IMG/VR virus record: IMGVR_UViG_3300050821_008688
Location: 35,669-99,668 of that record
DNA length: 64,000 bases
Strand: one strand, 5' to 3'
Origin: a virus
Part shown: positions 33,984 through 59,922 of the stretch, one piece after another
Layout: each line of letters starts with the position of its first letter
Position numbering within the stretch: position 1 is the first letter of the stretch
The notes under the pieces: model-generated
What the model was told of the DNA's origin: nothing
The model's database searches: none
Seen by the model: only the letters and a program-made list of their open reading frames with translations
Position numbers and translations under genes: made by a program

Positions 33984-34061
33984 CGCGGGGTCGTCTAGTC
34001 CGGTCTAAGACGCGGGTCTCATAAACCTGCATCGTGGGTTCAAATCCCACCCCCGCTACCA
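33984..34061 (+). tRNA. tRNA-Met(CAT), initiator-like
   Basis: cloverleaf, C1:U72 mismatch, anticodon CAT, TTCAAAT T-loop, encoded CCA. Confidence 0.92.
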
Positions 34062-34066
34062 TTTTC

Positions 34067-34141
34067 GCGGGCTTGGCCTATTGGCAGGGCATCTGCCTTC
34101 CAAGCAGAAAAAAAAGAGTCCGATTCTCTTAGCCCGCTCCA
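34067..34141 (+). tRNA. tRNA-Gly(TCC)
   Basis: GCGGGCT/AGCCCGC acceptor, CTTCCAA loop, U73, CCA; T-loop TCCGATT. Confidence 0.9.
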
Positions 34142-34190
34142 TATTTTTCTTGACTGGACAGGGAAGTGAGGAGTAGTATCAAACGTATAT

Positions 34191-34320
34191 CAGGGTAAGG
34201 CCCGCGTGGATTGCGGCATGCAGCGGAGTGATAGGAATAGTACCTCTGGCCGAGGGAAGACCCAATCAACTCAAACAGACATGCGAATCCTAAAGCCTTG
34301 TAAGAGGGGCGGGCCTCCTG
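34191..34320 (+). ncRNA. unannotated structured RNA 2
   Basis: promoter TTGACT-N18-TAGTAT upstream; AGGCCCGC/GCGGGCCT, GGATT/AATCC and GCATG/CATGC stems; GTAA tetraloop; T run after. Confidence 0.6.
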
Positions 34321-34330
34321 CTTTTTCTAT

Positions 34331-34403
34331 GCCGGTGTGATGATAGACGCTAGGAACCTACGGTGAAATCCACCACAGCCTCCGGGAGAGGCAACCGGCT
34401 CCA
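34331..34403 (+). ncRNA. tRNA-like RNA 3 with CCA end
   Basis: GCCGGT/ACCGGC followed by T-CCA; GCCTC/GAGGC hairpin in the T-arm position. Confidence 0.6.
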
Positions 34404-34409
34404 TTTTTG

Positions 34410-34474
34410 TGGAGTGGGTGCATACGAAGACCATTGGCGACGTATGCATGGTTAGAGACCGAACCACTCCAGCC
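34410..34474 (+). ncRNA. tRNA-like RNA 4
   Basis: TGGAGTGG/CCACTCCA, TGCATACG/CGTATGCA, GGTT/GACC. Confidence 0.55.
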
Positions 34475-34537
34475 TTTTTAGGAGTACTGAGATGATTGAC
34501 GTGTGTGATGGAACGATAACAGGTGGCGTGACAACTC

Positions 34538-34612
34538 GCCCCTGTAGCGTTAAGGCAGAGCGCCGCACCCGTAATGCGGAGGTTGGTGGTTCAAGTCCAC
34601 TCAGGGGCTCCA
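34538..34612 (+). tRNA. tRNA-Thr(CGT)
   Basis: cloverleaf, loop CCCGTAA, TTCAAGT T-loop, CCA. Confidence 0.88.
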
Positions 34613-34615
34613 TTT

Positions 34616-34691
34616 TGGGATGTGGCTCAACTGGTACAGCAGGTGATTGTTAATCACCCACTTGTAGGTCCGATTCCTACCGTCCCAGCCA
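34616..34691 (+). tRNA. tRNA-Asn(GTT)
   Basis: cloverleaf, loop TTGTTAA, G73, CCA. Confidence 0.88.
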
Positions 34692-34705
34692 GTTCGGAGA
34701 ATGTG

Positions 34706-35362
34706 ATGATTAATATGGCTCCTGATTGTGAATTGATTGGCTATATTTTGCGGCACGGTGAGACAGTTCTGAACGCCAATAATTGTTGGCGCGGTTGGGA
34801 AAACCCGCCGCTCAATGAAAAAGGTACGGAGGCTGCCGAAGCTGCCGGTCACTATCTCGGGTTTCAAAAGCTAGGCCGTATTGTCAGTTCTGATTTGCTG
34901 CGCGCTTCGCAGACCGCAGAAATTGTTATGAGTTGCGCGAGTGTGGAATGCCCGTACATTTCCTACGACCCCAACCTTCGCCCGTGGGCTATTAGTAGTA
35001 AATTTGCCGGAATGGAAAAAACAGCGGAGCGATTGAAAGATTTCAAGTTTTATATTGACCACCCAGATGTACCGATTCCTCCAGACGGTGAGTCTTTGAA
35101 TCAACATCGTGACCGCAACGAAGTTATTTTTCCATATCTGGCTACACCGTATAAAGGTCTTCCGACTTTAGTCGTCTGTCACACAAGCAACGTGACTGCC
35201 GCTGTGCGACGCATCGATGAAGAGACGTTTCAGCAAGAAGAGTGGACCGATGTGGTTGAGCCCGGAGGATTAATTGCGGTGTATATGGATGGCAAAGGTA
35301 CTCTTAGCGTAATACCTGTTTTGGGCGCAGTGAAAACAGAACCACAACCGGAAGCATCCTAA
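34706..35362 (+). CDS. histidine phosphatase (phosphoglycerate-mutase family)
   Basis: LRHGET, SSDLLRASQTA, DGES, VVCH. Confidence 0.9.
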   Translation: MINMAPDCELIGYILRHGETVLNANNCWRGWENPPLNEKGTEAAEAAGHYLGFQKLGRIVSSDLLRASQTAEIVMSCASVECPYISYDPNLRPWAISSKFAGMEKTAERLKDFKFYIDHPDVPIPPDGESLNQHRDRNEVIFPYLATPYKGLPTLVVCHTSNVTAAVRRIDEETFQQEEWTDVVEPGGLIAVYMDGKGTLSVIPVLGAVKTEPQPEAS

Positions 35363-35937: not shown

Positions 35938-38799
35938 ATGTCTAGTTCGTCCACGTTGCCGCCTACCGTTAATACGCCGCCTGCTCCTAGTATTGCTGAT
36001 TTGTATGGCGACACAGGCCGACTTGTAGTCGCGCCGCCCGCGCCACCTGCCACAGTTACGGAACCGGACCCGAACCGTGTTCGTCCCGTTGAAGCCCTTG
36101 ATGCGGAATCCCCGTTTCTTCAGCACGTTGGTAAAGCTGTAGAAGGCGCGGGTCAGATGGTTAAATCTGTTGTGGCTCCCAAGGGCGCAACGGAAAAAGA
36201 ACGACTCAAAAATATTGCCAACGAAGCCCTGATTGAACCCGAAAAACAACAGACAATCAAAGCAGGCGAAGCCTTGAATCGCGCGGACGCCGAAAAAGCA
36301 GCGGGGCATCCTGTGCGCGCGGCCCTCGCCAAAGTGGAAGCGGGTGGACACGCGCTTGCGAGCGGTGTGCCCTTGGTCGGCCCGTGGGCTGCTGGTGTCG
36401 CTGAAGAAGCTGGACAGGAAATTGGACGGCGTGAGTACGGAGCCGCCGCTGGAGATGTGGTTGGAAACGTGGCGGTCGGAAAAGCATTAGAAGAGGGTGG
36501 CGAGGCAACAAAGGGCGCAGTAGAGAGCGCAGTGAGTCATGCGGGTGAGACTGCGAAAAATGCTATCAGTTCAGCGGGTTCTGAAGCGGGTAGGATGGCG
36601 CGTGCGACCGCTCCCGAAGGAAGTACAGAGGCAGGCTTTGCTAAGTTGGGCGGTAAGAAAGTAAGCGCCGCCAAGCCAGCCGCCGAACCTGTGGACTTGA
36701 GTCCTGCGTATGGTGCCACAGGAAAAGCAATTCCAGAAACTGAAGTTTCGCATACCGGTAATGCGGGCTCCATCAACGAAGTAAAAGTAAAACAGGGCGG
36801 CGAGGATATCGGGGCTCTGCATTTTACGCACGAGGGTGATGTCGCGTCGGTCAACGATACTTGGGTGGACCCGAAGTCGCAGGGTCAAGGTCACGGCCAG
36901 CGTCTGATAACCGAAGCTGCGGCTGCTGCAAAGAAAAACGGCGCGAAAGTTTTCACTTCGGACCCGAACGGCGAAACCAGTCCTGCTGCGGCTAACGCGT
37001 GGGATGCTCTCGTTCGCAGAGGGCAAGCTGAGGAAACGGGAAGTACGACCGGTCCAAAATATCAAATGAATCTAGAAGACCAAAGCGACACGTCTTTCAA
37101 GTTTGGCGAGAACATAGAGCCTGAAAAGTCTACGACCGTGCCTGATTTTGCTCAAAAAGCTGCGGACATTGCGAAGACACAAGGCGGCGGATTCACTATA
37201 GACCCACGCACGGGCGAGGTTCCGAAGACTGGCTATCAAATTGAAGCGGCTCCCGAACAGCGTGTGACGCTGGACCATCCTGCGACCGCGAAAGATATTC
37301 AAGAATTCGCAAACAAGAACAGAGACCTACTCGACAAACATCCTGAGTTGCACGTCGGCGGCTACGGCAATGAGTTGAACATTAGCGCAAAGGTGGACTC
37401 GCTAGAGGCTGCGAAGCAGGTGGCAAAAAAACTTGACCAGATTTCTGTTTGGGATAACGCCAAAGGCGAAGAAGTTAAGACGGGCGGCACGAGTCAGCGT
37501 CAGGAGTTTTCAAATTACCCACTGGCCGAACGGCTTAATGAACTGAAGGGAAACACCGCTTCTGATATTCCGGGGTTTGAGCACCTGTCAAAAGATTTCC
37601 ACGATAACATGGAGCCCGATGAACGCGAATACTTGAAAGGCAACAAACTCCTTCAGCGGAATGCGATGAAAGAGTACCACAAACTTTCTCCGTCCGTTCC
37701 TGAGACCACGAACGCGATGCAGGCGGGTGCGGCGCTGGGCGGCTGGTGGCAGCGGTACATCGATGTGTTCCACGATTTGACTGACGGCGGCAAGGAAGTC
37801 GCCAACACCGTGGGTCCGTCACACGCGGAAACTTTGAAGCAATGGCATGCGGCGCTCTCGGGAAATAAATCCGTTCAGGACGCGAACAATATAGCGTGGC
37901 ATTCTTACGCCGACTGGCTTGATGCGGGAAAGCCGACTGACCGACCGAGTATTGATGCTATTGTTCGGAAAACCGGTGCGCAGCCCGAGGGTAGTGGCAA
38001 GAGAGGTAACGCGGCTATTTCTGACACGCTTGATAAAAAAGGTAAAGTCAAACATGAAGGTTTGGATACAACCAAGCTATTCAATCTCGTAAATAGTCCT
38101 GAAATGAAAGGTGAGCGTCCTTTCTCGGGTAATGCGTTTGATGAGGGCTCTAAAAACCCACTGATGGGAACGACCGAGGGTGCGCGCAAAATTCCCTCGA
38201 TGGGCGCGACTGTTGCTGGTAAGGGGAATTTGAATCGTCTTGTACTTGATGCCCATATGCGAGACTTTTATGGACTCAGCACAACTCACGGTCCCGCTGC
38301 GCAATATATTGCTGACTCCGTGCATCTGCGGCAGGCGGCAAAAGCCCTTGGATTGAAGGGCGGCGAGGGGCAGGAACAACTGTGGGGGACGGTGCTTGGT
38401 TTGAAAACGCTCATAAAAGAGGGATTGACAAACCCGGAAGTTAGTGGTAAGTTGAACGCAGACGTAATCAATAAGATTGGTAAGGATTACGCGGAGGTAA
38501 TGGCAAATGACCCAGAAATCAGTCAACCCGGTGGCGTCCTCGACCGGCTCAAAGACAAATACGGCATTGGACGCGGAGCGGCTGGCGCTAGCGAAGCGTA
38601 TAGCAAAGCATCAGGCACCCGTACAAGTAAAGCTGGACCCGCAGGCGGCGAAACTCCAGTTAATCAGGCTCTCCTCGCAAAAACTGCTGAACGCATTAGA
38701 GGCCAAATCTCACCCTCAAAAATAAAGAAGCCTGCCGCTGCGCCGACTGAAGGTGGTTGGCTTTCCATGCTGAAAAATCCCGGTTCTAAAGCAAAATAA
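35938..38799 (+). CDS. large polyvalent or ejection-type protein with a GNAT domain and an HhH-glycosylase-like domain
   Basis: Ala/Gly-rich N-terminus; WVDPKSQGQGHGQRL (GNAT motif A); AALSGNKSV...LVLDAHM...QEQLW. Confidence 0.65.
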   Translation: MSSSSTLPPTVNTPPAPSIADLYGDTGRLVVAPPAPPATVTEPDPNRVRPVEALDAESPFLQHVGKAVEGAGQMVKSVVAPKGATEKERLKNIANEALIEPEKQQTIKAGEALNRADAEKAAGHPVRAALAKVEAGGHALASGVPLVGPWAAGVAEEAGQEIGRREYGAAAGDVVGNVAVGKALEEGGEATKGAVESAVSHAGETAKNAISSAGSEAGRMARATAPEGSTEAGFAKLGGKKVSAAKPAAEPVDLSPAYGATGKAIPETEVSHTGNAGSINEVKVKQGGEDIGALHFTHEGDVASVNDTWVDPKSQGQGHGQRLITEAAAAAKKNGAKVFTSDPNGETSPAAANAWDALVRRGQAEETGSTTGPKYQMNLEDQSDTSFKFGENIEPEKSTTVPDFAQKAADIAKTQGGGFTIDPRTGEVPKTGYQIEAAPEQRVTLDHPATAKDIQEFANKNRDLLDKHPELHVGGYGNELNISAKVDSLEAAKQVAKKLDQISVWDNAKGEEVKTGGTSQRQEFSNYPLAERLNELKGNTASDIPGFEHLSKDFHDNMEPDEREYLKGNKLLQRNAMKEYHKLSPSVPETTNAMQAGAALGGWWQRYIDVFHDLTDGGKEVANTVGPSHAETLKQWHAALSGNKSVQDANNIAWHSYADWLDAGKPTDRPSIDAIVRKTGAQPEGSGKRGNAAISDTLDKKGKVKHEGLDTTKLFNLVNSPEMKGERPFSGNAFDEGSKNPLMGTTEGARKIPSMGATVAGKGNLNRLVLDAHMRDFYGLSTTHGPAAQYIADSVHLRQAAKALGLKGGEGQEQLWGTVLGLKTLIKEGLTNPEVSGKLNADVINKIGKDYAEVMANDPEISQPGGVLDRLKDKYGIGRGAAGASEAYSKASGTRTSKAGPAGGETPVNQALLAKTAERIRGQISPSKIKKPAAAPTEGGWLSMLKNPGSKAK

Positions 38800-45760: not shown

Positions 45761-46339
45761 ATGAGATACGGAATTGATTTGGATGGTGTTCTTGCCGATT
45801 TCACCGAGCGGGTTATTGGGATAGCTAATTCCCTTTGGCCGGGGAAGATGCCCATCAATTACGTCCCAAATAACTGGGACTATACGGGCATACTGTCAAA
45901 AGAAGACTGGGCTGAAGTCTGGGCTCGCATCAAAGTGACGCCTTATTTCTGGGAGGATATCGTGCCGCTTCGCGGGTTGCGTGAACTTCAAACGAGCAAA
46001 AACGCGAACGACGAAATTTTCTTCATTACATCGCGCGCCACAACCGTGGGCGATTCGCCGCTGGTGCAGTCGGCTCGCTGGTTATCAACTTACGGTATGT
46101 ACCCGCGCGCCGGGTATAGCGTCGTCCTGCCGGTAAGCGACCCTGCGTTTAAGCAGGATTTATTCCGAGGGCTAGGTTTGAGATTCATGCTGGACGATTA
46201 TCCGCCGACCGTGGAACAACTAAACAAGATTGAAGGGATGCATGCTTTTCTTCTTGATGCGCCGTATAATCAGTATGCGAAAGATTTGCCCCGAGTCTAT
46301 TCAGTTACGGAGTATCTGGAAAGAATCCGGGTACAGTAA
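45761..46339 (+). CDS. HAD 5'(3')-deoxyribonucleotidase
   Basis: IDLDGVLADF, ITSR, LDD, APYN. Confidence 0.88.
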   Translation: MRYGIDLDGVLADFTERVIGIANSLWPGKMPINYVPNNWDYTGILSKEDWAEVWARIKVTPYFWEDIVPLRGLRELQTSKNANDEIFFITSRATTVGDSPLVQSARWLSTYGMYPRAGYSVVLPVSDPAFKQDLFRGLGLRFMLDDYPPTVEQLNKIEGMHAFLLDAPYNQYAKDLPRVYSVTEYLERIRVQ

Positions 46340-48595
46340 ATGGAATACGAATTCCTCTTCCTTGACTACGAGACCTTCTCCCTCGCAGACTTGAGCGAAG
46401 TCGGTCTTGATAACTACGCCAAAGACCCATCCACGGGCATAAGTGTGCTTGGATGGGCGCTGGACCGCGAACCAATTGAGCAGTGGTACCCGCATGTTGC
46501 TCGCCCTCCGAAAAAACTTCTCACCGCGATGCGTAATCCGAAAATTTTGAAGATTGCATGGAATGCTCAGTTTGAGTTTGAAATCACGCGCCGGGTTATG
46601 GGTCCACGATACATGGGCGAAGCGTTTGAGGTTCCCATTTCTGAATTCAGAGACCCGATGGTTTTGGCTCACGGTCTGTCGTTGCCGGGAAAACTTGAAA
46701 AAGTTGCGCAGCTTCTGAAGACGAAGGAACAGAAAGACCCGCGCGGCGACGTTTTGAAGCATATGTTTTGCAAACCCGTGAGCAAAGGCGGCGAGGAAAC
46801 TCTGTTCGGTATCTCGCCACCGTTGTTCCGAGACCACATCAGCCACCCAAAAGAATTCGCGGAGTACATGAAGTACAACGAGCAAGACGTACGCGCCGAA
46901 CGCGACCTATGGTACCGGTTGATTAAAATTCCTTTTCCTGACGCTGACTGGCAGTGCTGGATACTAGACCAGAAAATTAACGCCTTTGGAATGCCGGGAA
47001 ATCGCGAGCTAGCTAAAAAAATGTATCGCCTCGCTGAACGGTACATATTAGAACAGCGCAAGCGAGTGCAAGAATTAACCGGACTGAAAAATCCAAACTC
47101 TCGCGACCAAATGATAGAGTGGGCACAAGCACGCGGCTATCCGTGGAAGTCTTTGCTCGCAAGTTTCGTACAAATGGAGTTAGATAATCCCAACTCTCCA
47201 ATTACACCCGAGTGCCGTACGGCATTAACGATTCGTGCGACTTGCACACGGTCTTCGCATAAAAAATTGGAAAAATTCCTTCTCACGTTATCGAATGACG
47301 ATAGACTGCGCTACCAATTTCGATACATGGGTGCCCCACGGACAGGCCGATGGGCGGGCGGCACCGAAGACGGGAGCAGTTTCCAAGCCCAGAACATGCC
47401 GCGTGGTATGAAGGCTGTGAAAAAATTCCTAGAGCGAGCTCTAGAGTTGGTGCGCACAGAAGACTACGACGGTATTATCCGAGAATTCACCAACACAAAA
47501 AATCCGAAAGACTCCGTGACGGTCATCGAGTTAATCATCACGCTTCTGCGTTCGCTGTTCCAAGCCAAGCCGGGAAAGAAGTTGGTGGTGGCTGACCTGA
47601 ACGCCATTGAAAACCGCATGTTAGGCTGGGCTGCGAGTTGCTGGAATATTTTGGAGGTGTTCACCCATAAGCCGGAAGACGGCGGCGACCCGTATCTTTC
47701 GTTCGGCTGCCGCTTGTATAATAAAACCTACGCAGAGATGTGGGCGAAGTATATCTCGGGCGATGTAGACGACCGCCAGAATTCAAAGCCTGCCGTGCTG
47801 GGCGCGGGCTACGGTCTCGGCGGCGGCGAGATGAAGAAGAACGACAAAGGCGACATGGTGCGTGGCGGTCTGTGGGGATATGCGCTTAACGTTTGCGGCG
47901 TTGACATGTCGAAAGACTTGGCTCACAAAGCCGTGGATATTTTCCGAACTGCGTATCCTGAAGTTGTTCAGTTCTGGACAGACTTAGAAGAAGCATTTAA
48001 GCAGGTTCTGACCCGTGGCGGCGTGATTCAAGTTGGTCCGTTTACTTGGGATAAAAAACAGCGCGCGTGGGTTAAGAATCCAAAATTTTTAGGTTGTGTC
48101 CTCACTTTTAGTCGCATGAAAATGGAAGGTGGTGGTTACACCGTTTGCATGAAACTACCTTCGGGTCGCTCGCTCCACTATTTGAATGCGACGCTGGACG
48201 CTGAAGTAAAGCAGAGCAAAAAAACCGGCGAACCATACACCGTCCAAACTATTCACTACGACGGTATTGAACATAGCACGTCAAAAGACGCCACGGGACA
48301 GGATGAAAAGAAAACACACAAGTGGGGTCGGGTCAAGACGTACGGCGGAAAGATTTGCGAGAATGCGATTCAGGCGATGGCGCGCGATATTTTGCGAGAT
48401 GGTATACTGGCGGCTGACGAAATGGGTTTCCATATTTTTGGACTTTTCCATGACGAACCGGCCTGTGAAGAAGACGACGATATGTTTGGACTAGGCGTTA
48501 ACGACCTGATAGACTGTATAACGCGGGTTCCTTGGTGGGCTCCTAGACTACTCTTGGGCGCTGACGGGTTCGAGAGCTACGTCTACCACAAGTGA
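46340..48595 (+). CDS. DNA polymerase, family A
   Basis: LDYET exonuclease, TGRWAG, ADLNAIENR, RQNSKPAVLGAGYG, ENAIQAMARD, FHDE. Confidence 0.95.
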   Translation: MEYEFLFLDYETFSLADLSEVGLDNYAKDPSTGISVLGWALDREPIEQWYPHVARPPKKLLTAMRNPKILKIAWNAQFEFEITRRVMGPRYMGEAFEVPISEFRDPMVLAHGLSLPGKLEKVAQLLKTKEQKDPRGDVLKHMFCKPVSKGGEETLFGISPPLFRDHISHPKEFAEYMKYNEQDVRAERDLWYRLIKIPFPDADWQCWILDQKINAFGMPGNRELAKKMYRLAERYILEQRKRVQELTGLKNPNSRDQMIEWAQARGYPWKSLLASFVQMELDNPNSPITPECRTALTIRATCTRSSHKKLEKFLLTLSNDDRLRYQFRYMGAPRTGRWAGGTEDGSSFQAQNMPRGMKAVKKFLERALELVRTEDYDGIIREFTNTKNPKDSVTVIELIITLLRSLFQAKPGKKLVVADLNAIENRMLGWAASCWNILEVFTHKPEDGGDPYLSFGCRLYNKTYAEMWAKYISGDVDDRQNSKPAVLGAGYGLGGGEMKKNDKGDMVRGGLWGYALNVCGVDMSKDLAHKAVDIFRTAYPEVVQFWTDLEEAFKQVLTRGGVIQVGPFTWDKKQRAWVKNPKFLGCVLTFSRMKMEGGGYTVCMKLPSGRSLHYLNATLDAEVKQSKKTGEPYTVQTIHYDGIEHSTSKDATGQDEKKTHKWGRVKTYGGKICENAIQAMARDILRDGILAADEMGFHIFGLFHDEPACEEDDDMFGLGVNDLIDCITRVPWWAPRLLLGADGFESYVYHK

Positions 48596-51383: not shown

Positions 51384-52961
51384 ATGAGCGACCTAGACCG
51401 CGACCAACAGGCAATAGTTGATTCCCCGGAAGGGGTTCGTATTGTGGTAGCTGGTCCCGGCACCGGCAAGACTACCACGATGGTGGAATTGATTCACTCG
51501 TTGCTAGACGCGGGGGTTTCTGCTTCAGATATCCGCGCGGTCACTTTCTCGAAAGAGATGGCTGATGTTTTAGAAAAGCGTACGAAAGTGGCGGGCATCG
51601 TTTCCACACTTCATAGCTTGGGATACAGAATTTGTTCCGAGACAGACCGTAAACCAGTTGAACCTGAACTACGACACCGGCTAATGTGCAAACTAATTCG
51701 CAAGTGGCACGTTGACTACAAAGAGCTAGACAATTTCATCGCAAAGATGCGTCGAGAAAACTTGGAGCCTCGGGAGGCAGCGGAATGCGGAAAATACGAT
51801 TACGGCTTTATCGGAGCCTACAGCGAGTACGAACGTGTCAGACGGGCGGAAGGTTGGATGGACTTCGACAGTATGTTGCACGATTCCGTACAAATGTTAG
51901 AAAATGCACAAACTCGTGCAAGGTGGCAATCCAAATACCTGATTGTGGACGAAGCGCAAGATACGGACGATTTGCAGTGGCGGATGATGCAACTCATGTC
52001 GGAGAAATACGGCAACGTCACCGTGGTCGGTGACCCAAATCAAGCCATATACGGTTTTCGTGGAGCAAAACCAGAGAATATTACTGAGTTTGAGAAATGG
52101 TTTCCCGGTGGTAGGAATCTTTATCTCGGGAGAAACTATCGCAGCACGCGCAACATCGTGAAATTTATTCGAGAAAATGCGCCGAAGGGTACGCCGAGAG
52201 AGTTGTTGGACAAAATGGTGGCAGTGCGCGACGAAGACGGGCCGATAATTGGTTTGAAGATGTACTGGAACGAGGATGTGGAGGCTGAATCGGCGTTGAA
52301 ATTGGCATCAGCGGACCCACTGAACAGCGTTATTCTGGCACGCACCAATCGGATGGTCGGTTTGTTAGAACGAATCTGCAACCGCCACAGTATTCGGTAT
52401 CACTTGTTGGGGAAGACGAGCTTCTGGAAGCAGAATGAGATTCGCAAGGCCGTTGATGCGCTGAAAAACTACCCGACTCTTTTGACTGAAGCCGCATGCA
52501 ATGTAGCACTACCGCATATTGAAGCGAAATATGCAGTGGAAGACCGCACCGACCGGGATAACGATGCGCTCGAAAATCTGGCGGTGTTGCGCATTATCGG
52601 TAAGGATTATAAGATGGCGCGCGATTTTGTAGTTTATGCCAACAAGATGATGCACCGTCGCAATGACCCGCGCGGGATAACGATTTCCACGATTCACCAA
52701 GCGAAAGGCGGCGAGTGGGACAACGTTTATCTCATTGGCGCGAATGCCAAGATGATTCCACACGTTAAGGGTGACCCGCTTGAAGAGGAGCGGATTTATT
52801 TCGTGGCGATTTCTCGCCCGCGCAACTATTTGCGTATTTCGTTTGCAGGAACGCCATCCCCGTATCTGCGGAAGTATCTGACCGAGGAAATTTTGGACAA
52901 GCTGACGGCATGCGCGGACGAGGTTCAGCGGTTAGGGGAACAACATGAACTTTTCTCTTGA
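51384..52961 (+). CDS. UvrD/Rep SF1 helicase
   Basis: AGPGTGKT, VDEAQD, VGDPNQAIYGFRGA, NYRS, TIHQAKGGEW. Confidence 0.95.
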   Translation: MSDLDRDQQAIVDSPEGVRIVVAGPGTGKTTTMVELIHSLLDAGVSASDIRAVTFSKEMADVLEKRTKVAGIVSTLHSLGYRICSETDRKPVEPELRHRLMCKLIRKWHVDYKELDNFIAKMRRENLEPREAAECGKYDYGFIGAYSEYERVRRAEGWMDFDSMLHDSVQMLENAQTRARWQSKYLIVDEAQDTDDLQWRMMQLMSEKYGNVTVVGDPNQAIYGFRGAKPENITEFEKWFPGGRNLYLGRNYRSTRNIVKFIRENAPKGTPRELLDKMVAVRDEDGPIIGLKMYWNEDVEAESALKLASADPLNSVILARTNRMVGLLERICNRHSIRYHLLGKTSFWKQNEIRKAVDALKNYPTLLTEAACNVALPHIEAKYAVEDRTDRDNDALENLAVLRIIGKDYKMARDFVVYANKMMHRRNDPRGITISTIHQAKGGEWDNVYLIGANAKMIPHVKGDPLEEERIYFVAISRPRNYLRISFAGTPSPYLRKYLTEEILDKLTACADEVQRLGEQHELFS

Positions 52962-53051
52962 CATGTTTTCAGAAGTTTGGTCTACTAAGTAAGAGTCTGA
53001 CATATACGCACGTTGTGTGGGGGACTCGGAGCATTCAGACAGGAGCATATT

Positions 53052-53981
53052 ATGAATTTCACCGTTGTACGAAAAAACATACCAATTGATGTTTCTCTGG
53101 TCAAATCCAACGAATTTGATGTTCGGGACGAGGCAGGTAAGGACCAATCGGCAATTGACGAATTGGTGGCTCAAGGATTTCTTTCTCAACTTCCAATTCT
53201 TACCTCGGATTATGTTCTTCTTGACGGACGAACGGGTTTTGAGGCTGAGAAAGTGTTGGATGGAAAGTTTGGCGAAGACGGCAAGTTAGTGGCACTCGCC
53301 ACTGTCGTGCGGGTAGACTTCGTTGGATTTGCGTGGGCGTCATTAACCCCTGAACAGAAACAGGAAGCCATTACATGGGCTCTTCAACGAAACTTACCCA
53401 CCTATGGTTTTTCACGCCCTGCCACTCAAGCGGACGTCCAGCATGTGGCGGTGCAGTTGATGGGGCAGGGGGCAGATAAAGCGAAAACAATAAAACTTCT
53501 GGTTTCGGCGGGCGTAAAGATTAGTCGCGCCACGAAGTTAAGTCAACTTGCCGAGAGTGAGATAAACGCTCGGGACACCCGTACCGCTGACACGTACAGT
53601 AAACAGCACGATGTCAGCCCAAGCGCGGCAGTATCAGCATTGGTGCGCCAAGGTGTAATTGCTCCTGCCCGTGCCGAAAAAGTGAAAGAAATGGTCAAGA
53701 ACTACGGGCAAAAAGGAAAGGTAAACCGTCCTCAGAGTACGTCATACGTTCGGACATCGCAAACGGCCCTGACGGATGCGATTGCCGCAGTGAAGCGGTA
53801 TAATGACGCCAATCTGAAAAAGTTTTTAGACGACAGCCACAAGTACACGGGAAAGTTTGTGGTTGACGTGGCTGATATCCATGTTCGGACGGCGGCGAAG
53901 ATTCTTGCTCAAGCCGAGCGTGGAGCAGACCGGATTCGGACGGAAGTGAATAAGCGGGTTCCATCCACACACCGCTTTTAG
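53052..53981 (+). CDS. ParB-like N-terminal domain protein (degenerate)
   Basis: SNEFDVR...IDELVAQGFLSQLPIL...LLDGRTGFEA; helical C-terminus. Confidence 0.5.
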   Translation: MNFTVVRKNIPIDVSLVKSNEFDVRDEAGKDQSAIDELVAQGFLSQLPILTSDYVLLDGRTGFEAEKVLDGKFGEDGKLVALATVVRVDFVGFAWASLTPEQKQEAITWALQRNLPTYGFSRPATQADVQHVAVQLMGQGADKAKTIKLLVSAGVKISRATKLSQLAESEINARDTRTADTYSKQHDVSPSAAVSALVRQGVIAPARAEKVKEMVKNYGQKGKVNRPQSTSYVRTSQTALTDAIAAVKRYNDANLKKFLDDSHKYTGKFVVDVADIHVRTAAKILAQAERGADRIRTEVNKRVPSTHRF

Positions 53982-54016
53982 CGTTTGCTGTTGTACATGT
54001 TTTAGCCTTTTCAGTT

Positions 54017-54086
54017 GCAGGGCTCGTCCAACAAGGACACTCGGTCCTCCGAGGGAATATCGGTTTGACTCCGATGCCCCGCTCCA
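54017..54086 (+). tRNA. non-canonical tRNA(Gly)-like RNA with a 4-nt anticodon loop
   Basis: GCAGGGC-TC-GTCC-AACAA-GGAC-A-CTCGG-TCCT-CCGAG-GGAAT-ATCGG-TTTGACT-CCGAT-GCCCCGC-T-CCA. Confidence 0.8.
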
Positions 54087-54103
54087 GTTTTACGGGGAGA
54101 ACT

Positions 54104-54718
54104 ATGTCACTTGAGCAATACACGGAAACAGAACTAGTCTTGCCCGAAAATCTTCCGAAAGACCAGTGGATTGCCGTAGGGGTGCGCCTGCGACTAGACC
54201 AAAAATCTATCCAGTGGTGGATTGGCGACTGGATAAACTACGGCGAAAAAGTTTACGGAGAAACGTATAAACTTGCGGCGAGTGCTACCGGGTATGAAGA
54301 AAGTTCACTTCAAACTATGGCGTCGGTCTCCAAGCGTGTTGAACCTTTGTTACGTAACAAGGATTTGTCTTGGAATCACCACAAAGAAGTAGCTTCGCTC
54401 GACACCCCTGAACAACAGCGATACTGGTTGAACTGCGCCGCCCAGAAACCGCCTCTATCTGTCCGAGAACTCCGAGACATGATTCACCAGAAACCCGAAG
54501 CACCTCGGTCAGAAGAAATTTGGCGGTTGCGGGAGTGGATTAAACAAAATTGTCCATCAGTACAGGCGTATGTTCAAAATTCAACGTATGATGTGGTTGA
54601 ACGCTTGAAGACAGGGGATGTGGATAAATTCGATTTAGAGATTCGTCTAGTATCGGCGGACGATGTTAAAGTAATTTGCGCTCGACTAGCGCAACAGGGG
54701 TTCCCCATTGAAGCGTGA
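54104..54718 (+). CDS. LmbU-like DNA-binding protein
   Basis: WWIGDWINYGEKVYGETY...TGY...LSWNHHKEVA...LSVRELR. Confidence 0.75.
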   Translation: MSLEQYTETELVLPENLPKDQWIAVGVRLRLDQKSIQWWIGDWINYGEKVYGETYKLAASATGYEESSLQTMASVSKRVEPLLRNKDLSWNHHKEVASLDTPEQQRYWLNCAAQKPPLSVRELRDMIHQKPEAPRSEEIWRLREWIKQNCPSVQAYVQNSTYDVVERLKTGDVDKFDLEIRLVSADDVKVICARLAQQGFPIEA

Positions 54719-55727
54719 ATATGACACCGAGCGTAAAGACTACGCTACAAGCACGGCATTAACACTAATACACCCTGACAAAATTCGGGTTCTTACTACT
54801 CCATCCAGCGTGATTGCTTTTTATCAGAAAAGAATGTCTAAAGCTGATTGGCGTCCCGCTCCGGGTAGAAAACTAGGATTTCTTGTAGTTCAGGATGACT
54901 ACCTGCTAGGTCTTTTATTTTTAGCCACGCCTGTTATTCGCATGACGGTGCGGGACGATTACTTGTTCCCTCCAAGTGTTCGGTTCAAGTGGATGATGGA
55001 GCATAACGCATCTATTTTTAATATAGGACTCGCAACTCGGGACTTCATGGACCTATCTGTTTGTGTATCCGCGCAGCCTATTGGGTGGCACTGGAACCTT
55101 GGAAAATTGATGGCTCTTATAGCGCCCACGCTTGGGGATTTTGTGAACGCTCGATACAGCCAAGATACTTTTCGCGGAGTCATCACCACCTCTGTGTGGG
55201 GACGAAGCGTTCAATACAACCGTGTCTATAGATTTTTAGGCTTGTCCAAAGGAAACGGGCGCGAACAATATGATGACGCTGCCGTTGCCCGCATGGTTCA
55301 GGAACTACGACAGCGCTGTCCTCACTGCAATGAACGCCGACTCGAAGCCGACGAGTACTATGCAATTCACCCATTAAGTAAAACACGGCGCGCGTATCTT
55401 CATGCCCGTGAACTTCGAGATAAATTATCTGTAGGGGCACTCAACAAAGAATACGCCGACTTGTGTCTTGTGCCGGGACAACGATTTGGAGAAGGAACTA
55501 ATTCAGTCATGAGAAAAATAGCAGCATACCGCCAAATGACAGGGGACAAGTCCATCACCCTTAAACATGGAAAAGCCCGAGGCGTGTACTACCACCCCGC
55601 CGTGCCTTCCACTCAACGTGCCGAAGTTATTCAACAGTGGTTTACCCGCTGGGGTTTGCCGAGGTATGAACGGACCAAAAATGAAATACCCCCGTATCAA
55701 AACGGGCTGGAAGGGAGACCAGCATGA
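54708..55727 (+). CDS. DUF4338/DruA-like protein (possible Mom-like DNA-modifying transferase)
   Basis: PGRKLGFLV, LATPVIRMTVRDDY, GKLMAL, TTSVWGRSVQYNR, FLGLSKG. Confidence 0.7.
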   Translation: MKREYDTERKDYATSTALTLIHPDKIRVLTTPSSVIAFYQKRMSKADWRPAPGRKLGFLVVQDDYLLGLLFLATPVIRMTVRDDYLFPPSVRFKWMMEHNASIFNIGLATRDFMDLSVCVSAQPIGWHWNLGKLMALIAPTLGDFVNARYSQDTFRGVITTSVWGRSVQYNRVYRFLGLSKGNGREQYDDAAVARMVQELRQRCPHCNERRLEADEYYAIHPLSKTRRAYLHARELRDKLSVGALNKEYADLCLVPGQRFGEGTNSVMRKIAAYRQMTGDKSITLKHGKARGVYYHPAVPSTQRAEVIQQWFTRWGLPRYERTKNEIPPYQNGLEGRPA

Positions 55728-56854
55728 AACCGCATCTGTACATCAACTCGAAGGGATATCCGGTGAACCGCCATAGCTACTCGGGGAGCGATTCCTTCAA
55801 TTTCTGCGCGCGCAAGTATTATTTGGAGCGTATTCAAGGTTGGGCTGAAAAAACCGAGCGGTCGTCTAAATTTTTCGGCACCGCGATTGATACCTGTGTT
55901 CAATTCTACCATCAGCATCGCATGGACCTGACCGCTACTCTTGCGGAATTCCAACGGCTGTGGGCAGAGCACAAAGACCAGCCGTACCTATATAACAAAA
56001 CCGACAAAGATTGGGCGACCCTGAACGTGATGGGTCAGCAAATGATTCGTCTCTACGCTATCCGCTACCCGACACTCCCGTGGATTGTGAATAATCCCGA
56101 AGACTTTCAGGTTAAAAATAGCTTCGAGGTTTTTCCGGGCACAAAGCTGGCGGGTCTTGAATTCACTTCATACATTGACTGCATTGCGCAACTGAAAAAC
56201 ACGTTTGAACCCCTTATCATTGATTCAAAGACTAGCGGCAAAGACGTACCTGAGTTTACTGTGCTAGACCCACAACTCCGCAGTTACGCGTGGGTGCGTC
56301 GGCGTCCCGAAGATGCGGTGACCGCCGTAGCGTTCCTATGGCTTCGTAAATGCGGGCTTGAAGTTTCTAAGGGTGATAACGCAACGCTGCTAGAGGATGC
56401 TGGTGGTTTGCATGCGGGTGATGACGTGATTGTGCTGGCGTCAGACGCCTTTGGACTCTGGGTTACGCAGAATCCACAGGTTGTTGATGACATGGACGCG
56501 AAATTTAAAGGCAGCGCGAAAGCTACGGTTGCGGCGCGTACCGAATACATTCAGGCTAATGGCATCGGCGTCGCAGAACGTGCAGTCACGAAGCAAAAAG
56601 TCCAGTTCAAGATAGCATACATCACGAAAGAGAGCGCCGAAGATATCGGACGCTCAATTAAACAGGACATCATCAACATCGTCAAAGCAACCGAGAATGA
56701 TTTCTTCCCGATGCAGAGCGGTGTGCGTTTTCCGAATGAGAAGTGCCCAATCTGTCCGATGCGCGGAATTTGCGCCAACCGGCCTGATTTGCGGGATACG
56801 CTCCTAGTCCGAAAGCAGTTAGATGAATTTGATTTCGGAAAGGAAAGCGAGTAG
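55724..56854 (+). CDS. PD-(D/E)xK RecB/Cas4-like exonuclease
   Basis: SYS...CARKYYL, YIDCI...IIDSKTS, QLRSY, CPICPMRGIC. Confidence 0.85.
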   Translation: MKPHLYINSKGYPVNRHSYSGSDSFNFCARKYYLERIQGWAEKTERSSKFFGTAIDTCVQFYHQHRMDLTATLAEFQRLWAEHKDQPYLYNKTDKDWATLNVMGQQMIRLYAIRYPTLPWIVNNPEDFQVKNSFEVFPGTKLAGLEFTSYIDCIAQLKNTFEPLIIDSKTSGKDVPEFTVLDPQLRSYAWVRRRPEDAVTAVAFLWLRKCGLEVSKGDNATLLEDAGGLHAGDDVIVLASDAFGLWVTQNPQVVDDMDAKFKGSAKATVAARTEYIQANGIGVAERAVTKQKVQFKIAYITKESAEDIGRSIKQDIINIVKATENDFFPMQSGVRFPNEKCPICPMRGICANRPDLRDTLLVRKQLDEFDFGKESE

Positions 56855-56863
56855 AATCTCATC

Positions 56864-58849
56864 ATGAATAATTACGACGCGGTTCCTGAAATCCTGAAGG
56901 ATTTGCCACAGTGGATTGTCTGGAAGTTGGAGCGGCGCAACGGCAAAGCTACAAAACTTCCGTACGACGCTAAAAAAGCAGGAGTATATGCCAAATCAAA
57001 CGACGAGACTACGTGGGCAACTTTTGACGTGGCTCTTGACACGGCCTCCAACATCACAAACGACTATGATGGTGTTGGATTCATGCTTCACGGAACCGAT
57101 TTGGTTGGAATTGACTTCGACGGCGTCCTACATGATGGTTCTCCCGAACCGTTCGTACTCGAAATCCTCCGTCATCTTGGCGACCCGTATAGCGAAATCA
57201 CTCCATCCGGCAACGGGCTGCGGGCGTTCGTTCAGTGTAAAACTTTGCCGACCGGACAACGCAAATTTAGTGGCAACAAATATGGTGCCGAAATCTATAG
57301 CGGGTCTGAGGGCGGGCGATATCTCACAGTAACCGGCAATCAATTTTCCGGTACTGGTGTTCCAAAAATTGAAAATATTGACATCGCCTACTTCATGGTG
57401 ACGCAGATTCGCAACGCGAAGCTGAAAGCCCTGTGGATGGGTGACACTTCGGAATACAATAATGACCAATCCGCAGCGGACCTAGCTCTCCTCAACATTC
57501 TCAAACATCTTTTCAATGGCGACCCACAGAAGATGGAGCGATATTTCAGTGCGTCCGTGTTGGGCCAGCGCGAGAAGTGGACGCAGCGCGAAGATTATCG
57601 CAAGCGCACAATCGCTCGCGCGCTCGACGGCGAGACCCAGCCTGAACCTGAACCCGCCGCCACGAAGAAAAAAGCGAATGCACTTCCTGCCGCTGAAATG
57701 ATTGCGATAACGGGCGATAAAATTGTGCCGAAGAGAGTAAAGTGGCTGTGGCGAGACCGCGTTCCGTTTGGCAAAATCACGCTGTATGCGGGCAATCCTG
57801 ACAACGGAAAATCATTGGCGGGAATGGACCTTGCCGCGCGCGTTACGACTGGTCGAAGTTTTCCGCTGGGCGATGAAAATAAGTATGAGCCCTTCGATGT
57901 TTTGATGCTACTAGGCGAAGATGATTTGGATGATACTGCGGTGCCGCGTCTTATGGCTGCGGGCGCGGACATGAAGCGTATTCATTTTCCCGAAGGCGTC
58001 GTGCGACCCAACGACTCGGACTCTGAAGTCAGATTGGACTTGGATTTGCCTGCTCTTGACGCCTACCTCGACAAAAATCCCGCCATCAAGCTAATCGTTA
58101 TTGACCCTATCACCAACTATCTGGGCGAAGTCCACATGGTGGCGGAGCAGGAGGCTCGCTCGATTCTTATTCCCTTGAAACGGCTCGCCGCGAAGCGGAT
58201 GATTGCCGTGGTGATGGTGATGCACTTGAATAAAAAATCGGAACAGGACGCAATCTCCCGCGTCGGTGGCGCGATGGCGTTCATCGGTGTAGCGCGATGC
58301 TCTTGGATGTTCATTCGAGACTCTAGTACTGGCGAGGGGGAAATCAAAGACAGCTTTTCTATGGCGCGCATCAAAAACAACCTGACCAAAGCGTCGGGTA
58401 GTGGCATCGCCTATCACATTGACGTTCATAAAATAGAAATCCCCGGCGAATTGGAACCTGTGTGGGCTCCGTACGCGGTGTGGGATGAGTCTATCAACAA
58501 AACCGCTGACGACGTGCTAGACGAACGGCGCGAAAAGTCTGGGGGTGGAAGGCCAAAAGGCACGGATGACGTGCTACAGGAAGCCGTACGCTGGCTGGAA
58601 GGGGTTCTGGGCACGGGTGCCAAGGCTGAGAAGTGGATTGCCGACCACGCAAAACACGAAGCGGATATTTCCCCCGCGACTTTGCGGCGCGCGAAGACGC
58701 AACTGAAGGTGAAATCGCGGCAGGCAGCAGGCGGTTGGATATGGGAGATGCCAAAAGTGATGGCGGTTGAACCGAAAAGTGATGATGAGTGGGCTCCGCA
58801 AGATGAGGATGATATCAATCCCGAGACCACGGAGTTTGAACTTCGATGA
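56864..58849 (+). CDS. primase-polymerase fused to an AAA/RepA-like helicase
   Basis: LPQWIVW, GIDFD, EITPSGNGLR, DQSAAD, GNPDNGKS, IVIDP, HLNK. Confidence 0.9.
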   Translation: MNNYDAVPEILKDLPQWIVWKLERRNGKATKLPYDAKKAGVYAKSNDETTWATFDVALDTASNITNDYDGVGFMLHGTDLVGIDFDGVLHDGSPEPFVLEILRHLGDPYSEITPSGNGLRAFVQCKTLPTGQRKFSGNKYGAEIYSGSEGGRYLTVTGNQFSGTGVPKIENIDIAYFMVTQIRNAKLKALWMGDTSEYNNDQSAADLALLNILKHLFNGDPQKMERYFSASVLGQREKWTQREDYRKRTIARALDGETQPEPEPAATKKKANALPAAEMIAITGDKIVPKRVKWLWRDRVPFGKITLYAGNPDNGKSLAGMDLAARVTTGRSFPLGDENKYEPFDVLMLLGEDDLDDTAVPRLMAAGADMKRIHFPEGVVRPNDSDSEVRLDLDLPALDAYLDKNPAIKLIVIDPITNYLGEVHMVAEQEARSILIPLKRLAAKRMIAVVMVMHLNKKSEQDAISRVGGAMAFIGVARCSWMFIRDSSTGEGEIKDSFSMARIKNNLTKASGSGIAYHIDVHKIEIPGELEPVWAPYAVWDESINKTADDVLDERREKSGGGRPKGTDDVLQEAVRWLEGVLGTGAKAEKWIADHAKHEADISPATLRRAKTQLKVKSRQAAGGWIWEMPKVMAVEPKSDDEWAPQDEDDINPETTEFELR

Positions 58850-59074: not shown

Positions 59075-59560
59075 ATGTACTCGTTGATTAAGGCACTGCC
59101 GAAAATTGCGGCGCGGGAGATGCAGAACACCCACGTCTTCCCGAAAAACCTGAAGGCGAAGTACGAACTGATTGCAGAAGCTTACGGAGCCGCCGCCGTC
59201 GAGGATGACTTTACGGACTGGTGCCGCGAGGTTCGCGACCGGAATCCCCGGTACCCTATCACCGAGTACATCAAGGTGGTGGACGCGCGCCTCGGTCGGG
59301 CGTTTGAGGAAGCGAAGGCTGACCTGAAAGACCCACGCATTCCCGAAATCGCGGCGCTGACTTATGACCTGACCGGCTATGTCCCGACGTTTCGTTCCGT
59401 GGGAAACATCTTGCTCTCGTTTACGCAGGAAGAAATTGAGGGCGCGCTGCGCGAATATGTTTCTACTTTGGACGACAAAGATGTTAAGATGGGAATGAAG
59501 ACGTTTTTCATGGAGGGCGGTGCGACGACTGTGATTCTAGCGCGCCAAAAACGAAAATGA
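59075..59560 (+). CDS. hypothetical protein
   Basis: GGAGG RBS. Confidence 0.65.
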   Translation: MYSLIKALPKIAAREMQNTHVFPKNLKAKYELIAEAYGAAAVEDDFTDWCREVRDRNPRYPITEYIKVVDARLGRAFEEAKADLKDPRIPEIAALTYDLTGYVPTFRSVGNILLSFTQEEIEGALREYVSTLDDKDVKMGMKTFFMEGGATTVILARQKRK

Positions 59561-59922
59561 TTACCGTCGTGAGAATTAGTCAAACACATTTGTGCGACCA
59601 CACGCGGTATATTGGCAGACCGTGGGCTGGACTGCCGGGGTCTATGTATTGCAATCCATTTCATCTTCAGAAGTATGCAAATCGGGAAGACTGCTTGCTT
59701 GATTTCGCGGAATATTGGTACTCGCCCGAGAAAAAGTGGTTGCGCGATGCAGCGGTGCATGATTTTGCAGAGAATGAAATTCTTGGCTGCTGGTGTCACC
59801 CGTTATTGTGTCACGGGGATATTGAGGCGGGTTATGTGAACTGGAAGCGTCACCCAGTACCGCCGCAGGAGATATTTGATTTTGGAGGGCCACCGAATGT
59901 GATTCTGGCGCGCCAAAAATGA
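59557..59922 (+). CDS. DUF4326 family protein
   Basis: YIGRP...NPF...LGCWCHPLLCHGD. Confidence 0.85.
   Translation: MITVVRISQTHLCDHTRYIGRPWAGLPGSMYCNPFHLQKYANREDCLLDFAEYWYSPEKKWLRDAAVHDFAENEILGCWCHPLLCHGDIEAGYVNWKRHPVPPQEIFDFGGPPNVILARQK

Follow-up and report, generated by a model that had tools for sequence, protein, structure and literature searches.

We analysed a 64,000-nt stretch of a phage genome (IMG/VR record IMGVR_UViG_3300050821_008688) in which a 70-nt RNA resembling tRNA-Gly and a gene of the DUF4338/DruA family sit together in a DNA replication/recombination block. The phage genome, from a soil metagenome, is a single contig of 99,668 bp with direct terminal repeats and was judged 100% complete. 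The window is the whole analysed stretch, bases 35669-99668 of this genome, and the positions given for the phage are window positions. Besides the genes listed here, the block encodes an RNase T-type exonuclease, RecA, an NT5C deoxynucleotidase, ERF and SSB.

51384-52961: UvrD-type helicase, in the same block as the DUF4338 gene
52958-52963, plus strand: TTGACA hexamer, proposed operon promoter (perfect -35, poor -10)
53052-53981, plus strand: 309-aa protein upstream of the RNA, with a possible ParB N-terminal-like domain as a lead only (ESM Atlas neighbours)
54017-54086, plus strand: 70-nt tRNA-Gly-like RNA (cloverleaf as minimum-free-energy fold; 89.7 bits with covariance model R1; 22 further homologous elements)
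54104-54718, plus strand: 204-aa helix-turn-helix (HTH) protein of LmbU-family type (NF038070), between the RNA and the GNAT gene
54708-55727, plus strand: DUF4338/DruA-family protein, 339 aa, TTG start (PF14236; GNAT-fold model)
55724-56854: PD-(D/E)XK exonuclease, in the same block as the DUF4338 gene
56864-58849: primase-helicase, in the same block as the DUF4338 gene
34067-34141, plus strand: canonical tRNA-Gly(UCC) of the phage, in a cluster of four tRNAs (ARAGORN)

The 309-aa open reading frame (ORF), the RNA, the HTH gene and the DUF4338 gene follow one another in this order, tightly packed and all on the plus strand. The RNA is intergenic: it lies 36 nt past the stop of the 309-aa ORF, its CCA end is followed by a U-rich stretch, and 18 nt past its end come the GGGGAG ribosome-binding site and ATG of the HTH gene.

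The minimum-free-energy fold of the 70 nt is a cloverleaf (-27.7 kcal/mol, 73% of the ensemble, z -2.3), the same as that drawn from the letters in the initial annotation. Its acceptor stem of 7 bp (GCAGGGC/GCCCCGC) has a single mismatch, A3.C70, with G1:C72, C2:G71 and G4:C69 present, and all other stems pair. The D arm reads GUCC-AACAA-GGAC, with no GG in its loop; the anticodon arm, CUCGG-UCCU-CCGAG, has a loop of only 4 nt; a 5-nt variable loop (GGAAU) and the T arm AUCGG-UUUGACU-CCGAU, with U56 in the loop, lead to the end U73-CCA. The element thus shares with a canonical elongator tRNA (RF00005) the four-arm cloverleaf, the 7-bp acceptor stem, the discriminator base and CCA, whereas the 7-nt anticodon loop with U33 and the G18G19/U54-U55-C56 elbow are missing, and tRNA finders pass over it. 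ARAGORN called no tRNA at 54017-54086 and only four in the window (Met/Gly/Thr/Asn, 33984-34691), and an Rfam search of 53900-54200 returned no family, RF00005 included, even at E<=10. The four-tRNA cluster lies ∼19.3 kb upstream, close to the 20 kb first estimated. Its tRNA-Gly(UCC) was the true tRNA that scored best with model R1, at 35.9 bits. This tRNA (34067-34141) and the tRNA-Asn(GUU) of the cluster (34616-34691), both on the plus strand, have the T-loop UCCGAUU, with C at position 55. U55 is near-universal in tRNAs, so the 'canonical' tRNAs of this phage are slightly unusual as well.

Gene linkage, covariation and glycine identity of the element

Homologues of the DUF4338 protein (query 54708-55727) were taken from IMG/VR, JGI metagenomes and GTDB genomes, and linkage was counted over 68 non-redundant loci with a DruA-like gene, each from a phage or a metagenome-assembled genome (MAG). 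In two of them (L001 and L005), a homologous tRNA-like element stands directly before the gene; the stems differ, and the D-loop, the T-loop and the CGC-U-CCA end are the same. Covariance model R1, built from three elements, detected an element in 23 of the 68 loci, all 23 distinct and every one on the strand of the DruA-like gene. The linkage suggested by the window therefore recurs across diverged phages. Ten elements lie immediately upstream of the gene, six one gene upstream (the window, L037, L040, L060, L078 and L085) and six immediately downstream, and the rest within 0.8-1.3 kb. The neighbouring genes vary among loci, and the constant pair is the RNA and the GNAT gene. When ARAGORN was run on the family elements, one was called tRNA-Gly(tcc) and one 'tRNA-??? 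aacc', a call of undetermined type with a 4-base anticodon. Two MAG contigs (L087 and L088) link the group to Acidobacteriota. One of these and a further contig have 96 nt in common at 97% identity, which is the element (L038:1707-1799 and L087:3090-3185), although the two contigs are otherwise unalignable; this would imply either very strong constraint or a recent exchange of the element alone.

Two loci depart from the simple arrangement. L060 carries two different Gly-type elements upstream of its DruA-like gene: a near-normal one of 76 nt (158-233), with GG in the D-loop, the T-loop UUCAAAU and an AACC-containing loop, and one of 68 nt (994-1061) with a short loop and the A3.C70 mismatch. 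In a distant clade (35% identity; L031, 3514-8608, and L032), the DruA-like gene is found within a cluster of ordinary tRNA genes, with a normal tRNA-Gly(tcc) ∼1.3 kb downstream of it, and R1 finds no mimic there.

The stems have completely diverged among the 23 distinct elements, and yet pairing is kept. In a structure-fitted alignment, 90.4% of cells were paired (66.9% in shuffles), double changes occurred in 19 of 21 pairs with support for all four helices, and the covariation score was 0.586 versus 0.169, reached by none of 500 shuffles, with slid-register controls at or below 0.10. This alignment was fitted to model R1 and includes two true tRNAs of the window, and alignments made with MAFFT and cmsearch put the anticodon arm one column out of place in short-class elements. 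We therefore parsed 22 of the elements separately, arm by arm; of the cells, 95.7% then paired, and 18 of 21 pairs had compensatory changes. L040 and L060 share the A3.C70 mismatch of the window, so that it occurs in three different contigs and is a real feature rather than a sequencing error. The earlier argument that intact stems speak against random decay was borne out by these compensatory changes.

Other positions in the parse do not vary. G1:C72, C2:G71, a purine4:pyrimidine69 pair and U73 were each present in 22/22 elements; a CC dinucleotide, as UCC, ACC or CCC, was found in the anticodon-arm loop of all 22, and CCA is encoded in 19. The loop itself ranged from 3 nt (five elements) over 4 nt (three) and 5 nt (nine) to 6-8 nt (five). 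The reported determinants of the bacterial alpha2beta2 glycyl-tRNA synthetase (GlyRS) are G1:C72, C2:G71, U73, C35, C36 and purine4:pyrimidine69, the 4:69 rule being recent, and in the same work charging by the bacterial enzyme withstood changes of the G18-U55 elbow and swaps of loop sequence (PMC10464925). The invariant positions of the family, read from sequence in the window element and in 22/22 parsed members, are exactly these determinants, so that the claim of the initial annotation that glycine identity is kept now extends to the full published set.

The features needed for decoding, in contrast, are lost or degraded: the window element and most relatives have no 7-nt loop with U33, their loops being shrunken or carrying A33 (L011, L051 and L065), GG is missing from the majority of D-loops, and the T-loops are degenerate. 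Four full-size members (L045, L048, L054 and L078) can be drawn with a 7-nt loop of CUUCCAG type, and a 32-38 pair is no rarity in tRNA-Gly (PMC7826273). For this reason our firm claim of lost decoding is confined to the short-loop class, to which the window element belongs. Together, these data support the view that the RNA of this class is a selected, non-decoding derivative of tRNA-Gly, as judged from its sequence and covariation.

The DUF4338 protein and the closest known systems

The family label of the protein encoded at 54708-55727 was upheld, chiefly by profiles: as a single sequence it scored 26.1 bits with PF14236, just under the cut-off of 27, and PADLOC gave a weak match to DruA (at 24-26 bits, single-sequence scores with the two models, Pfam and PADLOC DruA, are marginal), whereas the broad family profile matched the gene at E 5.8e-74. 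There are more than 245 close homologues, PF14236 is annotated in 120/120 among the matches listed, and the family profile reaches 1091 cluster representatives, many of them cellular proteins of 380-1100 aa. G68, K133, G165 and Y170 are invariant across the family and G53-R54, P124, G132, T160, S162, R291, W311 and R319 nearly so; the signature common with DruA comprises GR, S.CV..QP, GGK, TTTS...QYNR, HG..RGVY and W..RW..R.

DUF4338 (PF14236) defines DruA of type I Druantia defence systems, and to our knowledge DruA has no known function. By profile (E 5.8e-74) and signature motifs, the phage protein belongs to the same family. In type I Druantia, however, druA is accompanied by druB, druC, druD and the DruE helicase, whereas the phage gene lies in a replication module; a PADLOC search found no Dru match beyond the weak one to DruA and no DruB-E neighbours. 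As the function of DruA is not known, the resemblance explains nothing mechanistically.

An AlphaFold2 model of the protein reached a mean confidence (pLDDT) of 88.9 and a predicted template-modelling (TM) score of 0.85, and every significant structural neighbour of the model is a GNAT. Ahead of its last strand the fold has an insertion of ∼100 residues (about 185-285), flanked by strands 175-179 and 291-297, and it also has a C-terminal helix. Both structural searches put Mom of phage Mu (8bv8) first among solved structures, the top VIA match spanning residues 29-223 of the chain. We know of no other enzyme that modifies DNA with a charged tRNA. Mom moves Gly from Gly-tRNAGly to N6-adenine in double-stranded DNA, as the initial annotation had correctly stated, and recognises features of the tRNA 3' end together with the amino acid; it has an essential HTH-like insertion and the essential or catalytic residues R111, S124, D149 and R151 (PMC13219725). 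In both Mom (PF25680) and the DUF4338 model, an insertion separates the last strands of the GNAT core, at topologically equivalent sites. They differ in that the insertion has ∼35 residues in Mom and ∼100 in the predicted enzyme, that Mom uses ordinary tRNAGly isoacceptors of the host and no private RNA, and that no sequence homology was detected between them.

The closest parallel for the RNA itself comes from staphylococci, in which the non-proteogenic (NP) tRNAGly species NP1-NP3 of S. aureus and S. epidermidis are donors for FmhB/FemA/FemB and bind EF-Tu and the ribosome poorly (PMC7826273). Like the phage RNA, as far as its sequence tells, these are extra species derived from tRNA-Gly(UCC) with altered D and T regions and preserved features for GlyRS recognition, and the window element also has their A49-U65 and U50-A64 pairs. 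The staphylococcal RNAs serve GNAT-fold transferases, but of the Fem family instead of DUF4338. They are cellular and of full size, with an intact anticodon loop and an unlinked transferase gene, whereas the phage RNA is phage-encoded, has a 4-nt loop (3-8 nt in the family) and adjoins the gene of its presumed enzyme. Viral 3' tRNA-like structures and mascRNA-type elements are likewise tRNA-shaped RNAs within a longer transcript, plausibly recognised by tRNA-processing or tRNA-charging enzymes. The phage RNA differs from them in being a full four-arm cloverleaf with encoded CCA and conserved glycine identity, and in that its coupling is to a single enzyme family and involves neither genome replication nor RNA stability.

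A candidate glycyl donor and its rivals

For a conserved, chargeable-looking but non-decoding tRNA-Gly derivative that is tied to a GNAT gene, the simplest account is that of a private glycyl donor. We infer that the RNA would be transcribed within the operon of the replication module and excised like a tRNA, and that a bacterial-type GlyRS of the host would charge it through G1:C72, C2:G71, purine4:pyrimidine69, U73, CCA and the two cytidines left from the anticodon. With an anticodon loop of only 4 nt and without the G18G19/T-loop elbow contacts, the glycylated RNA would be a poor ligand for EF-Tu and the ribosome and thereby barred from translation. The adjacent DUF4338/DruA GNAT could then take Gly-RNA as acyl donor, as Mom, the Fem transferases and DhpK do with aminoacyl-tRNA. 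The acceptor, the weakest link of the account, would most probably be DNA; we favour it on account of the analogy with Mom, the replication/recombination context of the gene and the occurrence of DUF4338 in Druantia and in DndF fusions. That a tRNA-dependent GNAT transferase is supplied by such a ribosome-unfit donor RNA, DNA being its most likely acceptor, is a proposal in which we place middling confidence.

Several results weigh against this proposal. The structural lead of Mom over generic acetyl-CoA GNATs is less than 1 Z unit. Comparison of DUF4338 with the Mom family in hhalign, whether by single sequence, narrow profile or broad profile, gave a probability of at most 0.7%, the family hidden Markov model had no match among PDB sequences, and Pfam found no PF25680 (Mom) match in the protein. 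Of the Mom-like transferase put forward in the initial annotation, the GNAT fold and Mom as first-ranked structure therefore stand, and a relation at the sequence level (hhalign below 1%) does not. We could not place the catalytic residues of Mom on the model, and a weak hhalign stretch that sets Mom's R opposite Val118 is unreliable. Where GNATs have their CoA-pyrophosphate motif, the family also retains a Q-P-x-G...G-K loop, and its Tyr170 is invariant, so that an acyl-CoA donor is possible too. On the side of the RNA, GlyRS reportedly needs the whole L-shape (PMC10464925), and a 4-nt loop and a missing elbow may thus lower charging. R1 detected no element in 45 of the 68 loci, even when the closest relatives (L047, L064, L069, L070 and L072) were run with filters off, and at least 16 of these 45 have 2 kb or more of flank on either side. 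Inspection by eye of the flanks of the gene, 180 nt before it and 170 nt after it, revealed no more elements, and a loose descriptor scan returned noise only. In such loci the enzyme may use host Gly-tRNAGly like Mom, have its RNA elsewhere or carry forms that R1 misses. Finally, in two loci (L011, 3881-4792, and L029, 3914-4885), the frame of the DruA-like gene is open through the whole element, with an ATG 13-28 nt upstream of it, and in L011 no in-frame ATG, GTG or TTG occurs from the element to the conserved N-terminus. Either the element is translated there as an N-terminal extension or processing of the RNA competes with translation, which leaves room for a cis-regulatory component.

Most of the proposal would survive if only the acceptor were different. 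The same glycyl-charged private donor could serve a DUF4338 GNAT that acts, in the manner of FemXAB, L/F-transferase or DhpK, on a protein, a cell-envelope precursor, a nucleotide or another small molecule. The known aminoacyl-tRNA-dependent transferases of GNAT fold mostly act on acceptors other than DNA (PMC7826273; PMC13219725), and DUF4338 has no sequence homology to Mom. We nevertheless consider a non-DNA acceptor unlikely, as the gene lies within a DNA replication/recombination module, Mom is the top structural neighbour with a similarly placed insertion, and DUF4338 occurs in DNA-directed systems, namely Druantia DruA and fusions to DndF (PMC10853773). The roles could also be reversed, the RNA being the substrate or partner of an acyl-CoA-dependent enzyme that acylates either an RNA base, as TmcA/NAT10 do and with the conserved CC as candidate site, or the glycyl group, as TacT/AtaT do. 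The best Foldseek E-value indeed belongs to the tRNA cytidine acetyltransferase TmcA (2e-4), NAT10 is among the matches, the CoA-loop-like motif and the tyrosine are kept, and GNAT toxins specific for Gly-tRNAGly are known (PMC13219725). The TmcA/NAT10 alignments, however, have a root-mean-square deviation of ∼19-24 Å and a TM score of at most 0.27; the phage would gain no obvious benefit by modifying a non-decoding RNA; and the invariant glycine identity of the acceptor end (G1:C72, C2:G71, 4:69, U73 and CCA) goes unexplained unless charging matters. This makes a substrate role a rather poor prospect.

Two further explanations dispense with enzyme chemistry altogether. The element could be a processing or regulatory signal in cis, a tRNA-like punctuation mark cleaved by RNase P or RNase E that sets mRNA levels of the enzyme, or a decoy for a tRNA factor of the host. 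It shares strand and transcription unit with the enzyme gene in every case and often lies no more than 40 nt from the start codon; this, its position inside an open frame in L011 and L029 and the U-rich stretch after CCA fit a signal of this kind. Yet its position varies between upstream, one gene away and downstream, processing requires neither the CC of the loop nor U73 nor purine4:pyrimidine69, and a decoy would leave the exclusive linkage to DUF4338 genes unexplained, so we regard both versions as improbable. That a decaying tRNA-Gly pseudogene or an assembly artefact hitch-hikes by the gene is scarcely credible. Rejection by tRNA finders and the presence of a normal tRNA-Gly(UCC) in the same phage might suggest it, and some relatives do have a normal 7-nt loop, which the initial annotation had named as a sign of a pseudogene or assembly deletion. 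However, four stems are kept through compensatory changes in 23 distinct sequences, A3.C70 recurs in three contigs, the element is nearly identical in otherwise unalignable DNA (L038/L087), and shrunken loops recur in at least nine members on different stems, which excludes such an origin for the short loops. Three other candidates were rejected: a remnant of a phage attachment (attP) or integration site (no integrase nearby, and a full cloverleaf diverged among phages), a T-box or GlyRS-inducing mimic of uncharged tRNA (truncated anticodon loop and missing elbow) and a primer for the adjacent primase-polymerase (the element is linked to the GNAT gene instead of the primase).

One paper already describes DUF4338 as a GNAT domain and reports its fusion to the DNA-phosphorothioate restriction protein DndF (PMC10853773), and another mentions DruA-like proteins of Synechococcus phages (bioRxiv 10.1101/2025.08.05.668817); in our literature search no paper, these two included, tied DUF4338/DruA to tRNA. 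A bolder generalisation, which we think doubtful though worth stating, is that all DUF4338/DruA proteins, those of type I Druantia among them, depend on aminoacyl-tRNA and transfer glycine-derived groups to DNA, and that some phages evolved an orthogonal, ribosome-blind Gly-tRNA mimic as private donor. In that case, the private donor would free their DNA hypermodification from competing with translation, or let it survive host attacks on tRNA-Gly. If the donor proposal holds, DUF4338, a domain widespread in phages and the hallmark of type I Druantia DruA, would gain its first testable biochemical function. A second GNAT family, unrelated to Mom, with a dedicated donor RNA would also make tRNA-dependent modification, of nucleic acid or of something else, a broader phage strategy. 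The RNA appears to be a natural tRNA reduced to its aminoacylation identity, with the acceptor-end determinants and two anticodon cytidines on loops of 3-8 nt, and as such bears on how GlyRS reads its substrates and on the engineering of orthogonal carriers. It also exposes an annotation gap, as standard tRNA finders overlook such elements.

Neighbouring genes and other features of the window

The 204-aa HTH protein matched the NCBIfam model NF038070 (LmbU_fam_TF) with 93.4 bits (E 1.5e-26), below the curated cut-off of 125 bits, and had weak Pfam matches to HTH_ParB and DUF1016_N. The label LmbU-like is thus justified in the sense that sequence similarity supports a relation to the LmbU family, of which the protein is no certified member. 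For the 309-aa protein, no match to Pfam (E<=10; ParB_N, PF02195, included), PHROG or NCBIfam was found, a homologue search returned only the protein itself, and an AlphaFold2 model from a two-sequence alignment was too poor to use (pLDDT 47.5). Its ESM Atlas neighbours carry ParB_N (TM 0.53-0.60, feature score 0.93), and L037 encodes a 33%-identical homologue between its RNA and GNAT gene, with a DGRxG motif common to both. The designation ParB-like accordingly survives as a lead from structural neighbours and this motif, and the family databases do not back it. In the locus comparison, the 309-aa protein had a counterpart in L037 alone and the HTH protein in just L085 and L070, and we no longer count either as part of a module with the RNA, as the initial annotation had done. 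Nor did its operon promoter at 52958 gain support: the TTGACA hexamer is there, but with a poor -10, and a consensus promoter scan called no plus-strand promoter at this position. With the 2.8-kb region as query, blastn against 50,697 phage records returned nothing. Among sequencing runs, a search for those containing the sequence listed three DNA metagenomes, one of them the probable source, and no RNA data set.

Elsewhere in the window, all on the plus strand, several genes deserve mention. The NT5C-type 5'-deoxynucleotidase of the replication module (45761-46339) is a lead only for modified DNA; NT5C-type enzymes can go with altered nucleotide pools in phages that have modified DNA. The adjoining 751-aa protein (46340-48595) has no Pfam match and a faint NCBIfam similarity to bifunctional 3'-5' exonuclease/DNA polymerases, and may be the divergent DNA polymerase of this phage. 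A DUF4326 protein is encoded downstream of the primase-helicase (59557-59922). Just past the tRNA cluster, a 953-aa protein (35938-38799) contains a classical GNAT acetyltransferase domain at residues ∼284-340 (Acetyltransf_1/7/CG); unrelated to the DUF4338 gene, it is a second GNAT of the same phage. An ORF with a histidine-phosphatase domain (His_Phos_1; 34574-35362) begins within tRNA-Thr and tRNA-Asn when its start is placed mechanically, and its real start must therefore lie further downstream.

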